Shown piece after piece: positions 44,568 through 53,522 of a stretch of 64,000 nt of DNA. The translations under genes were made by a program, and so were the position numbers. This stretch comes from a virus, in IMG/VR virus record IMGVR_UViG_3300044613_003178, one strand, 5' to 3'. Below the pieces are notes generated by a model, which did not search any database, was not told where the DNA came from, and saw nothing but the letters and a program-made list of their open reading frames with translations. The first letter of the stretch is position 1, and the number at the start of each line of letters is the position of its first letter.

Positions 44568-44573
44568 AAAATG

Positions 44574-44658
44574 CGGACAGAGAAGGATTCGAACCCTCGG
44601 AGGCATTCACCTCTGCAGTTTAGTAAACTGCTGCAATAGACCACTCTGCCATCTGTCC
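44574..44658 (-). tRNA. tRNA-Ser(ACT)
   Basis: GCAGT-ttACTaa-ACTGC; long variable arm; G73. Confidence 0.85.
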
Positions 44659-45318: not shown

Positions 45319-45454
45319 TTTTTACTTCTTCCTTTGGAGAAAGAATATCTGTTACTACTCTTTCAATTGCAGAAATTCTTGAAAGTTGATGAGCAATATT
45401 TGCTCTAATATTTTTTAATTCATCACACATTGCAAGTAATTGTTCATTATTCAT
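45299..45454 (-). CDS. Small coiled-coil hypothetical protein (51 aa)
   Basis: GGAGG RBS; MNNEQLLAMCDELKNIRANIAHQLSRISAIERVV... Confidence 0.45.
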   Translation of the reverse strand: MNNEQLLAMCDELKNIRANIAHQLSRISAIERVVTDILSPKEEVKNEEPQN

Positions 45455-45465
45455 AAAGTCCTCCA

Positions 45466-45727
45466 AAATGATTTGCAATCATTTCTGACTGCAAATCGTG
45501 ATTCGTTCAGATGCGGGTGAATCATTCCCCACTGCTTCAAGCAGCCATTGCTAGTTCGTTAGCAATTATTGTTTACAACTATTTTTTAACGAGACTCGTT
45601 GCCTGTCCCGAATATCTCCCTTTTCCTTACTAAACACCAGTCGAATACCTGTACAGCCCCGTCAAGTGGAGCCGAGGGGAATCGAACCCCTGTCCTGATT
45701 GTCTTTCATTGAAGATCAACGATATCA
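45466..45727 (-). ncRNA. ssrA: Circularly permuted (two-piece) tmRNA, tag ANELAMAA
   Basis: The 3-prime tRNA-like half (CAGGGGTTCGATTCCCCTCGGCTCCA, ending 45667) precedes the 5-prime half (GGGGCTGTACAGGTATTCGAC, starting 45660). G3:U70 present; tag ORF at 45537-45563. Outer ends approximate. Confidence 0.88.
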
Positions 45728-45732
45728 AAGAT

Positions 45733-45740
45733 TATTTATA
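45733..45740 (-). promoter_or_regulatory. Late promoter TATAAATA upstream of tmRNA
   Basis: Exact consensus between tRNA-Gly and the tmRNA acceptor piece. Confidence 0.7.
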
Positions 45741-45741
45741 A

Positions 45742-45812
45742 AGCGTGTAGTGAGATTCGAACTCACGAGATAAGATTGGAAATCTAATATGTTACCACTA
45801 CATCATACACGC
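45742..45812 (-). tRNA. tRNA-Gly(TCC)
   Basis: TTAGA-ttTCCaa-TCTTA (one mismatch); U73. Confidence 0.82.
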
Positions 45813-46383: not shown

Positions 46384-46672
46384 AAGATTCTCCCATTTCT
46401 CTTGCTTTCATCCAGTGTTCACGACGATAGTTATCCATTGGTGGAAAATCAGACTTCTTCAAGATAGGGTGATTGAATGCTTCTCGCATCTTTACTAGAG
46501 ACTTATTCAACTCTTCAATACTATCACCATAAACACTTGACTGACTTACGGTATGATCAATTGGTTCCCCATCAAGATAATATACTTCATGAATAGCATA
46601 CCAAGCATCATGTGGATCTTCTGTAGTATCATCCATAATAATTCTATAGTTCCAAATTACTTTACCACTCAT
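46373..46672 (-). CDS. Conserved phage hypothetical protein (WNYR...IHEVYY)
   Basis: Motif commonly seen in small phage ORFs. Confidence 0.6.
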   Translation of the reverse strand: MSGKVIWNYRIIMDDTTEDPHDAWYAIHEVYYLDGEPIDHTVSQSSVYGDSIEELNKSLVKMREAFNHPILKKSDFPPMDNYRREHWMKAREMGESYEG

Positions 46673-47763
46673 ATTATTCCTTTCAGATTATTTGCTAACC
46701 ATTCAATTACATTCACGGTAACTGCATTTCCTAGTTGCTTATATCTTGTAGTATCTGCTTGTCCATCAGTCCAATTATCAGGAAATCCCTGTAGTCTCTC
46801 ACATTCCAAAGGTGTTAATCTTCGAATTGTTAGATTATAAGCAACTGCTTGACCATTTGCAAGATCTAATGTGTGAGAAACTTCTTCTGCAACACCATGA
46901 CCATTTGCTCCTGTTTGTGCTGTACGAACTGCCATTACCATAGCAGCATGAACTGCATTAGAAGCAGCAAGAGTGTGACACGGATCACCCGGTACTCTTG
47001 TTTGCTTATTGATAGGTGCTGTAATCTGGAATAAATCGTAAGGAATAGGCTCCAATACTGCAGACATTCTACGCTTATCCGGTTCTGCTTGTTGACGAAA
47101 TAAACTTGAAGATGTTAAGGTGTCTGAGAGTTGTCCACCATCCCACCACTTTGTCTCTTCAATGTTTCCTCCAATACTGGAGGTAAGTTCTTTCCTCTTG
47201 TCTTTGCTCTTCGTAGAATCCCCTGACATGCTTTCGGAGAGAGCCAATACTTGCTCGGCACCCCCGATTCGAGAACTTGCGACAATAAAGATGCGCTTGC
47301 GTCGTTGGGGCACTCCGAAGAATTGGCTGTCAAGAACTCTCCATGCGATTTCCTGACAATCCCACCCTTTGTCCATTTCAGCGAGGAGGACTGCGAAATC
47401 CCTTCCTTTATTGCTCGACAACAATCCTGGCACATTTTCGAGTATGACGAACTGGGGATTGATTCCCCGTACAAGTCGCATTGCTTCATAAAATAATCCT
47501 GACCTTTCTCCAGCAAGACCTTTACGCTTACCTGCTACCGATAAATCCTGACAAGGAAATCCACCACAGATGATATCAACCTTTTCAAGTTCTTCAACCT
47601 TTACTTGCTTGATATCTGAATAAATTTTAGCATTTGGAAAATGCTTTTGTAGAACTTTTCTACAATGTGGATCAATTTCGACTGACCAAGCAAGTTCAAA
47701 TCCTGCTCGTTCAAAACCGAGATCAAAACCACCAATACCTGCAAATAGTGATCCTACTTTCAT
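46669..47763 (-). CDS. dcm: DNA (cytosine-5)-methyltransferase
   Basis: Motif I FAGIGG, IV GGFPCQ, VI ENVPG, VIII PQRRKRIF, IX RRLTPLECERLQGFP, X YKQLGNAV. Confidence 0.95.
   Translation of the reverse strand: MKVGSLFAGIGGFDLGFERAGFELAWSVEIDPHCRKVLQKHFPNAKIYSDIKQVKVEELEKVDIICGGFPCQDLSVAGKRKGLAGERSGLFYEAMRLVRGINPQFVILENVPGLLSSNKGRDFAVLLAEMDKGWDCQEIAWRVLDSQFFGVPQRRKRIFIVASSRIGGAEQVLALSESMSGDSTKSKDKRKELTSSIGGNIEETKWWDGGQLSDTLTSSSLFRQQAEPDKRRMSAVLEPIPYDLFQITAPINKQTRVPGDPCHTLAASNAVHAAMVMAVRTAQTGANGHGVAEEVSHTLDLANGQAVAYNLTIRRLTPLECERLQGFPDNWTDGQADTTRYKQLGNAVTVNVIEWLANNLKGII
47115..47516 (-). CDS. Nested alternative-frame ORF within dcm (putative second methyltransferase polypeptide)
   Basis: 133-codon open frame containing LSQVLESGVPSKYWLSPKACQGILRRA. 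Start uncertain. Confidence 0.55.
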   Translation of the reverse strand: MLEKGQDYFMKQCDLYGESIPSSSYSKMCQDCCRAIKEGISQSSSLKWTKGGIVRKSHGEFLTANSSECPNDASASLLSQVLESGVPSKYWLSPKACQGILRRAKTRGKNLPPVLEETLKRQSGGMVDNSQTP

Positions 47764-51727: not shown

Positions 51728-52720
51728 TCAAATACTTTCCTTATCACCAGAGAAAGTAATTTCATGTAAATCCGAACCACTACTAAACATTAAAGTATCT
51801 TGAATATAAGCAGACATCATAGCAAAACTTGTACAATTCATGTATTCATTTCCATGAATGACCTTAAATTCTCCAACCTTCTTGAGAACATCACACTTAT
51901 TTATGATGAGTTCAGTACAACCCGATAAGACGATAGACTTCTTCAACTTATCAAGGTTCAACCAATTCACCAATCGTTTACGACCCGTAGTAGAACCAAA
52001 TTCTTGACCCTCCTCAATAATTCGATTCAGTACGGGATCATTCCATAATGTTTCGGGGAAGAGTGGATCTTTACCACTCTTTGTATCATATGCCTTTGCA
52101 ACACCAATCAATCTGCGAATCTTCTTCGGAGAGAAACCAAGAGAACATGCAGAGTATGGCATTGTTGAACTACTAGTTACGAATGGATAATCACCATGAT
52201 CAATATCAAGCCAAACACTTTGTGCTCCTTCACAAAGCACTCTACCTGATAGTTCACCATCCCACAACCACTCCGAAATAAAATATTCCTTTGCTCTCCT
52301 ACCTCTACGCAACATCTTATCTGAATAGCAAGGAGCAATTCCTTGAGAAGTTGTTCCTAAGTGACCAAGATTCTTCTTGTCCCACTCAATATGTTCTTCG
52401 GTGATAATATGTGCATTTGGATGAATTTTGATAAGAGAAGTATCAAATCCTGCTGCACGAAGTCCACGGATCTCTTCAAAGAATTTATCTGGGTTAATTA
52501 CACATCCCGGTCCAATTACACACTTCTTACCTGCAAAGATACCGGATGGAATAATATGAGTTTTAAATTTTTGTCCATTTACATAAACAGTGTGACCAGC
52601 ATTTGGTCCACCGTTCCAACGACAAACATAATCATATTTTGGAGCAAGAGCATTAGAAATCTTTCCCTTGCCTTCATCGCCCCATGCTAAACCATATATC
52701 ACATCTACATAATCAATCAT
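51728..52720 (-). CDS. purA: Adenylosuccinate synthetase (short form)
   Basis: WGDEGKGK, GGPNAGHT, IPSG, LGTT..GIAPCY.DK, EGAQ...LDIDHG.YPFVTSS, EFGSTTGRKR, NKCD. Confidence 0.93.
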   Translation of the reverse strand: MIDYVDVIYGLAWGDEGKGKISNALAPKYDYVCRWNGGPNAGHTVYVNGQKFKTHIIPSGIFAGKKCVIGPGCVINPDKFFEEIRGLRAAGFDTSLIKIHPNAHIITEEHIEWDKKNLGHLGTTSQGIAPCYSDKMLRRGRRAKEYFISEWLWDGELSGRVLCEGAQSVWLDIDHGDYPFVTSSSTMPYSACSLGFSPKKIRRLIGVAKAYDTKSGKDPLFPETLWNDPVLNRIIEEGQEFGSTTGRKRLVNWLNLDKLKKSIVLSGCTELIINKCDVLKKVGEFKVIHGNEYMNCTSFAMMSAYIQDTLMFSSGSDLHEITFSGDKESI

Positions 52721-53149: not shown

Positions 53150-53324
53150 AAGACGGTTTTGGTTGTATCCGGTAACTACTACTGCCTTACGGGCATTCAT
53201 CACCTTCGTATCAGGAACCGTAAACCAACCAGTGAAACGGTTTTGTAGTCGAGAGACTGCAGTGGTTTTCCGTAAACCATTTCTGTCTCGCTCGGATCTG
53301 CTCTCGGTGCATACCGACAAACCT
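53150..53324. ncRNA. Candidate structured RNA of unknown family
   Basis: GC-richer intergenic island with several hairpins and duplicated complementary motifs. Confidence 0.5.
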
Positions 53325-53522
53325 TATTTAATAATATAATACTATAAACAATAAAAGTAATTTTAATGTAACCACATAATATTATTATCAAAGTGCTTCA
53401 TAGTGTGTTTCCTTTGTTATTTTCTCTGACTCGTATAGTATACGACTTTTATCGGACTCCGCAAGGAAAAAAGTAAAGTTTTATAAGATTTTTTTTCAGG
53501 GTCAAATGCAAATATTCAAATT

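Follow-up and report, generated by a model that had tools for sequence, protein, structure and literature searches.

The tRNA gene region of an uncultured phage contains a minus-strand locus that reads, in rearranged order, like the parts of a tmRNA gene, raising the question of whether it encodes a working two-piece tmRNA (ssrA) and, if so, how such an RNA would be expressed, matured and used. The locus lies in a window of 64,000 nucleotides (the whole stretch of DNA that was analysed, whose coordinates are used here unless a contig is named), which is part of a 118,301-bp IMG/VR virus contig with an estimated completeness of ~65%, a G+C content of ~34% and 6.6% non-coding DNA. The contig represents a T4-like myovirus, as indicated by PHROG matches to baseplate wedge, hub and tail-tube-cap proteins, and the closest cultured relatives of this phage share only ~28-30% protein identity with it. 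The locus resides among the 17 tRNA genes of the phage, all on the same strand, with tRNA-Cys and tRNA-Gly directly upstream (minus strand, ARAGORN) across a gap of 2 nt. A blastn search with the locus returned no match among 50,697 records of isolate phages, and the only match of its 12-kb neighbourhood to the same records was tRNA-Pro.

Several other features were observed in this part of the genome. A C-5 cytosine DNA methyltransferase (46669-47763, minus; PF00145, E 3e-75) is encoded amid the tRNA genes, and a 330-aa protein (51728-52720, minus) matches PHROG 1211 (E 1e-68), the PurZ-type adenylosuccinate synthetase family from phages with 2-aminoadenine genomes; judging by this match, A may be replaced by Z in the DNA of this phage. 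A tRNA-Ser gene with the anticodon ACT (44573-44658, minus; ARAGORN, 53.8 bits with the Rfam tRNA model) is also present in the related contigs L092, L083 and L075; A34 is unusual for a Ser tRNA. Finally, a structured-looking non-coding stretch lies beside tRNA-Lys (53150-53330, minus) and proved unrelated, on comparison, to the spacer RNA described below.

The locus encodes a complete, circularly permuted tmRNA

The initial annotation had proposed a phage-encoded, circularly permuted and compact tmRNA, to be checked with ARAGORN and with permuted-tmRNA covariance models. ARAGORN called a permuted tmRNA (tmRNA*) at 45446-45760 on the minus strand, with the same tag, ANELAMAA, in the same frame. 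The Rfam model of permuted tmRNAs (RF04321, tmRNA_permuted) scored 87.6 bits against a gathering cut-off of 47 (E 1.9e-15), which is far above chance level, and the match was full-length, spanning model positions 1-213 of 213 (window 45537-45726, minus). The 5' end given by ARAGORN, 45760, is too long and overlaps tRNA-Gly; in the covariance model the RNA begins at 45726, as does its conserved outer helix.

The gene is circularly permuted, in that the T arm, the acceptor 3' strand and the discriminator are located upstream of the acceptor 5' strand and the tag frame (Table 1). The parts read in the initial annotation, namely TATAAATA, a 60-nt acceptor piece, CTTGAC, GGGGCTG, TTCGAC and the two helix-2 strands, were found where it had placed them, and an intact G3:U70, the unencoded CCA, ATAATT, the ANELAMAA frame and a 3' hairpin can all be read on the minus strand, as can the shortness of the spacer (6 nt) and of the tag. 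The determinants of alanine identity are in place: a 7-bp acceptor stem, formed by GGGGCUG and CGGCUCC, contains the wobble pair G45658:U45670 (G3:U70) and is accompanied by a discriminator A. The tag frame opens with the Ala resume codon GCU, and the tag closes with hydrophobic residues and AA. The 3' region folds with a z-score of -4.4, and its terminal hairpin is predicted to act as a 3' stabiliser or a weak intrinsic terminator; a simple terminator scan made no call for this hairpin.

Table 1. Elements of the permuted tmRNA locus (window coordinates) and copies of the spacer cargo RNA in other contigs (contig:coordinates)
Feature	Position	Strand	Remark
tRNA-Gly	45742-45812	minus	adjoins the 5' side of the tmRNA locus
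TATAAATA, candidate T4-type late-promoter box	45733-45740	minus	6 nt from its last A to G45726, where the outermost helix begins
Acceptor piece, 60 nt	45667-45726	minus	from the RF04321 alignment and pair counts on 14 relatives
Outer-helix strand GAUAU	45722-45726	minus	within the acceptor piece
Helix-2 strand AGACAATCAG	45695-45704	minus	in the acceptor piece; faces CTGGTGTTT
T arm AGGGG-TTCGATT-CCCCT	45675-45691	minus	canonical; in the acceptor piece
Acceptor 3' strand CGGCUCC	45668-45674	minus	U70 = 45670
Discriminator A	45667	minus	3' end of the acceptor piece
Spacer CUUGAC (CTTGAC), 6 nt	45661-45666	minus	empty allele of a polymorphic slot; no encoded CCA
Coding piece, ~195 nt	45465-45660	minus	from RF04321 and RF01850 alignments (the latter reaching 45469) and pair counts
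Acceptor 5' strand GGGGCUG	45654-45660	minus	G3 = 45658; followed by a D-loop analogue with UUCGAC
Helix-2 strand CTGGTGTTT	45632-45640	minus	in the coding piece; pairs back to the acceptor piece
Outer-helix strand AUAUU	45611-45615	minus	in the coding piece
Pseudoknot PK1	45575-45610	minus	stems 1 and 2; upstream of the tag frame
PK1 stem 1 CGGGAC/GUCUCG	45605-45610 with 45590-45595	minus	kept through two-sided changes
PK1 stem 2 GCAAC/GUUGU	45598-45602 with 45575-45579	minus	invariant in relatives
Tag frame GCT AAC GAA CTA GCA ATG GCT GCT TGA	45537-45563	minus	follows ATAATT; ANELAMAA and UGA stop; ARAGORN
Stop-codon hairpin CUGCU/AGCAG	45532-45544	minus	UGA in the loop; covaries
Second pseudoknot	45499-45530	minus	3' of the tag; aligns to the matching RF01850 element
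Second pseudoknot GGG/CCC	45528-45530 with 45515-45517	minus	first stem
Second pseudoknot UGAUUC/GAAUCA	45519-45524 with 45499-45504	minus	3 pairs with two-sided changes between groups
Terminal 12-bp hairpin and AUUUU	45465-45497 (hairpin 45470-45497)	minus	7 of 8 counted pairs covary
Cargo RNA copy	L091:2627-2736	plus	in a tmRNA spacer
Cargo RNA copy	L092:2110-2231	minus	in a tmRNA spacer
Cargo RNA copy	L079:739-848	minus	in a tmRNA spacer
Cargo RNA copy	L093:1257-1365	plus	in a tmRNA spacer
Cargo RNA copy	L094:955-1064	minus	in a tmRNA spacer
Cargo RNA copy	L095:10839-10947	minus	in a tmRNA spacer
Cargo RNA copy	L097:5717-5828	plus	free-standing, flanked by tRNA-Tyr and tRNA-Pro; a different permuted tmRNA follows just downstream
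Cargo RNA copy	L098:5901-6012	minus	directly 5' of a tmRNA 5' end

The RNA is conserved and under selection

Pattern scans recovered the same tmRNA gene from ~25 contigs (6 viral and 19 metagenome), which form two tag groups that are ~70% identical, one with the tag ANELAMAA, as in the window, and the other with ANRLAMAA or ANRMAMAA. Base pairs were counted over 14 distinct relatives in the outer helix, helix 2, the T arm, the acceptor stem, the PK1 stems, the stop-codon hairpin, both stems of the 3' pseudoknot and the terminal hairpin, and the 3' partners were slid by one to three columns as a control. Standard pairs made up 96.4% of the cells, compared to 40-47% in the slid controls, and two-sided changes were found in 17 pairs, compared to 1-5 in the controls. 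Most of these changes divide the two tag groups and thus reflect few events; the stop-codon hairpin covaries also within the ANELAMAA group. G3:U70 is invariant across the 14 relatives, and the tag frames of the two groups differ by synonymous changes in three codons and by one amino-acid change, E to R. With 96% of its pairs kept and 17 of them changed on both sides, the RNA is under selection and almost certainly has a function, and the proposal of the initial annotation is thereby borne out by covariation as well as by the detectors and the structure.

These observations bear on two other readings of the locus. The first takes it for a host ssrA gene in decay, or for a false positive called on a tRNA-Ala-like sequence, as might be supposed from an RNA that is shorter than bacterial two-piece tmRNAs and scores below the cut-off of the bacterial subtype model (RF01850, see below). 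Yet the RF04321 match is full-length at nearly twice the cut-off, every helix is kept in 14 distinct relatives from many samples, both pieces are complete, and no integrase context is seen in the phage. Pair conservation, the synonymous changes in the tag and the invariant G3:U70 all contradict a pseudogene or a detector artefact, a reading that we find hardly credible.

The second is that the tRNA-like domain serves as a decoy, binding host SmpB or AlaRS and damping host trans-translation, as reported for mycobacteriophage DS6A, whose tRNA-like-domain-only molecule inhibits tmRNA in E. coli (PMC4131195, PMC11915505). An smpB gene was not found on the contig (at ~65% completeness its absence is unproven), so that the RNA must compete for host SmpB, which would suit a decoy. 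However, a pure decoy would have no need of the tag frame, the resume-codon context, PK1 or the stop-codon hairpin, all of which are kept with covariation and synonymous changes, and we regard this role, drawn by analogy with DS6A, as quite improbable. Judged by its sequence, the locus is instead likely to be an ssrA gene for a working two-piece tmRNA, carried by a T4-like phage within its tRNA gene region.

A candidate late-type promoter box is kept at the 5' end of the gene

The initial annotation had also assigned the gene a late promoter, on account of the TATAAATA box. The raw count of this box in the AT-rich window is not enriched (10 found versus 10.5 expected), and only its position in the contig is informative. 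On the 118-kb contig, 9 of the 20 copies fall in non-coding DNA, which makes up 6.6% of the total, and nine copies precede a same-strand gene start by no more than 60 nt, six of these by 21-25 nt. In the relatives L075 and L083 the upstream flank differs, with ~300 nt of other sequence between tRNA-Gly and the tmRNA gene, and TATAAATA still stands 6 nt from the first helix; the ANRLAMAA group has CTAAATA instead, 5 nt from its helix. One or the other motif thus precedes the first helix by 5-6 nt in all members of the family, even where the upstream gene is different. Of the late-promoter claim, then, the box directly upstream, its retention with the gene and a fitting positional pattern hold up, while the raw count stays at chance, and TATAAATA is plausible as a candidate T4-type late promoter.

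A gene that is real but not specifically late would be co-transcribed with tRNA-Cys and tRNA-Gly as a tRNA operon, and its TATAAATA would be incidental. Read-through from tRNA genes so close by on the same strand is possible, the chance-level count of the box agrees with this reading, and the tmRNA of phage Melnitz was placed behind an early promoter (PMC9004378). It is harder to reconcile with a box-to-helix distance that is kept in L075 and L083 although the tRNA-Gly junction is replaced, with CTAAATA at the same place in the other tag group, or with the concentration of TATAAATA in non-coding DNA, and we consider co-transcription possible though doubtful.

Proposed maturation and function

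CCA is encoded by none of the 17 phage tRNA genes, seven of which share the N73-CUU end with the tmRNA, and this suggests one common 3' maturation route, in which RNase Z/BN or exonucleases would be followed by the host CCA-adding enzyme. In T4, tRNAs without an encoded CCA require RNase BN and the host enzyme. A gene for a CCA-adding enzyme was not found on the contig, where its absence is, as for smpB, unproven at ~65% completeness; nor was one for AlaRS found there.

With a late promoter at TATAAATA, transcription of the working tmRNA gene would start ~6 nt past the box, at about the first base of the outer helix, so that the primary 5' end would coincide with the first paired base and no trimming would be required at the 5' end of the acceptor piece. 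Transcription would end at the 3' hairpin, yielding a precursor of ~260 nt. Host RNase P would then cut before G45660, and the 6-nt trailer CUUGAC would be removed by RNase Z/BN or exonucleases, in the manner of the phage's own tRNAs. Once activated by the host CCA-adding enzyme, AlaRS and SmpB, the tmRNA would enter ribosomes stalled on broken messages and add ANELAMAA, freeing ribosomes at a late stage of infection, by which time the host has probably ceased to make RNA. A role against host RNase-based defences, which the initial annotation had raised, is speculation.

The spacer is polymorphic and can hold a tRNA-like RNA

Among the relatives, the spacer between the two pieces is 6, 12 or 122-134 nt long. 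The long form occurs in both tag groups: in L091 and L092, which are otherwise near-identical to the window, and in L079, L080, L088, L089, L093 and L095 of the ANR group. The long insert has no open frame and folds as a ~110-nt RNA that is cloverleaf-like (tRNA-like) and has a long extra arm. Its fold is closed by a 6-bp stem and comprises a hairpin resembling a D arm, with GG in its loop, another hairpin whose loop, UGACAAG, is invariant, a long arm in two parts and a T-arm-like hairpin that abuts the closing stem directly, and compensatory changes were found in 13 of its 31 pairs across eight copies. This cargo RNA matched no Rfam family and has no copy in the genome of the window phage or in isolate phages. 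It is reminiscent of RNA C and RNA D, unexplained stable RNAs from the tRNA cluster of T4.

Two of the eight copies lie outside a tmRNA spacer (L097 and L098, Table 1). In the free-standing copy of L097 all stems have changed, but the loops are retained, among them a canonical T loop. A further observation concerns L094 (950-1200, minus), in which the tag region and the spacer cargo are conserved and the tRNA-like domain is strongly diverged, with the T loop GGCAGTA in place of TTCGATT, the 5' strand GGGGGTG and an altered D-loop analogue; G3:U70 is still possible, and ARAGORN makes no call there.

CTTGAC and CTCGAC, the short spacers seen in the ANELAMAA group, look like the opening 7 nt of the long allele (CTTCAAC), and the window therefore most simply appears to carry a deletion of the cargo; insertion in the other contigs is the alternative. 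Extending this, the tmRNA spacer might be an exchangeable slot, emptied in the window and filled, in sister alleles of both tag groups, with a ~110-nt tRNA-like RNA that RNase P and RNase Z would set free in the course of tmRNA maturation, as a by-product. The late-expressed trimmed tmRNA, the tRNA array and the extra RNA might then act jointly as a kit for translation repair, directed against host defences that cleave tRNA or mRNA. We offer this scheme tentatively and think it unlikely to be correct. The natural alleles with and without the spacer RNA provide a handle both on the processing of permuted precursors and on whether the spacer cargo has any function.

The tmRNA fits the betaproteobacterial type best

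Within Rfam clan CL00001 (tRNA/tmRNA), the best model for the phage RNA was that of betaproteobacterial tmRNA, RF01850 (66.2 bits, E 7.6e-20, 45469-45774), whose alignment runs through both 3' elements. The gathering score of this model, 84 bits, was not reached, and the RNA is thus not filed as a member of the subtype. In plain alignments its identity to alpha-, beta- and cyano-type tmRNAs was ~44-54% for every subtype. The betaproteobacterial two-piece tmRNA itself was reportedly described by Sharkady and Williams in 2004 (cited in PMC9004378).

Bacterial genomes were scanned with one pattern that required this T arm and acceptor together with a short spacer, and the permuted tmRNAs so recovered came from Burkholderiales only, among them metagenome-assembled genomes and Pseudaquabacterium, which share the T arm and acceptor. 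Three additional matches, in Firmicutes, were rejected as false positives, being ordinary one-piece tmRNAs followed by GGGGCTG. A strong permuted tmRNA was found in just 4 of 151 sampled Burkholderiales. The tags of these strong permuted tmRNAs were ANDEHFAIAA, ANDERFALAA and ANDENFALAA, and their spacers were 27-45 nt long and formed a hairpin; ANELAMAA looks like a shortened ANDE(R/H/N)FALAA. As a best guess, given ~50% identity to all subtypes, the phage RNA was probably derived from a two-piece tmRNA of the betaproteobacterial type and then trimmed. The same ~50% identity to every subtype defeated an attempt to name a host or donor by sequence.

Comparison with known phage and bacterial tmRNAs

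Knowledge of phage tmRNAs goes back to the Bxz1-type mycobacteriophages (PMC4131195). Buchholz et al. (2022) identified 133 unique tmRNAs in 18,146 phage genomes, of which 53, all in cultured phages and including those of phiCbK, HTVC008M, S-CRM01 and Melnitz, were two-piece by ARAGORN, with 50 of the 53 coming from marine or aquatic phages; the proposed roles are upkeep of the hijacked translation machinery or tagging of host proteins (PMC9004378). The 2025 tmRNA database holds 79 unique phage sequences, and it is on record that permuted genes may carry a tRNA gene or a repeat in the intervening sequence and that tags may be as short as 2 residues (PMC11915505). Thus, the novelty that the initial annotation implied for a permuted phage tmRNA is overstated, since 53 of the 133 were already two-piece, and neither is its 8-residue tag 'minimal', nor its spacer unique, as spacers of 4-7 nt recur among other permuted phage tmRNAs in IMG/VR. 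What is new here is a family without a match in isolate phages, from an uncultured beta-like lineage, with a conserved late-type box at the 5' end, CCA-less 3' ends shared with the tRNAs, and a spacer that is either empty or filled with an RNA cargo.

Like the two-piece tmRNAs of aquatic myophages and siphophages (Methylophilales phage Melnitz, Pelagibacter phages HTVC008M and Mosig, Caulobacter phiCbK-like phages, and Synechococcus phages S-CRM01, S-CAM1 and S-SSM7; PMC9004378, Table S1), the window tmRNA comes from a permuted ssrA that is complete and belongs to a large lytic phage that also encodes tRNAs, and it has in common with them a T4-like context, the lack of a phage smpB and a proposed part in rescuing ribosomes or tagging proteins during infection. 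It differs from them in having a 6-nt spacer and an 8-residue tag, and it has no sequence match to any isolate phage. Moreover, Melnitz and the pelagiphages carry alpha-type tmRNAs, whereas the window tmRNA fits the beta-type model best, and while the Melnitz gene carries a glutamine riboswitch and was placed behind a proposed early promoter (PMC9004378), the window gene has a late-type box, and no glutamine riboswitch was detected in the window at the Rfam gathering level.

Compact cyanophage-type permuted tmRNAs of viral contigs (L013, L015 and L027, 74-105 bits with RF01851), together with those of L002 and L007, resemble the window tmRNA in having spacers of 4-7 nt and a place in or near tRNA arrays; all of them differ from it in subtype and in their longer cyanobacterial tags of the NNIVxFxR kind. 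In L002 (1465-1661, minus) and L007 (8126-8320, plus) we observed a tmRNA-like gene that is permuted and very compact, has a spacer of 5 nt and a tag of cyanobacterial appearance (...NNIVSFRRTAVAV), sits inside arrays of 26-30 tRNA genes and was missed by both ARAGORN and gathering-level Rfam searches.

Compared to betaproteobacterial tmRNA (RF01850), the order of the elements is the same, including two 3' hairpin elements, but the bacteria examined have a hairpin-forming spacer of 27-45 nt and a tag of 10 residues, in contrast to 6 nt and 8 residues in the window tmRNA, which also lacks an encoded CCA and lies in an AT-rich locus. The 6-nt spacer, the 8-residue tag and what appears to be a late-type promoter of its own indicate how far phages have trimmed this gene, and the window tmRNA adds to the known two-piece tmRNAs of phages a well-supported uncultured lineage rather than a new category.
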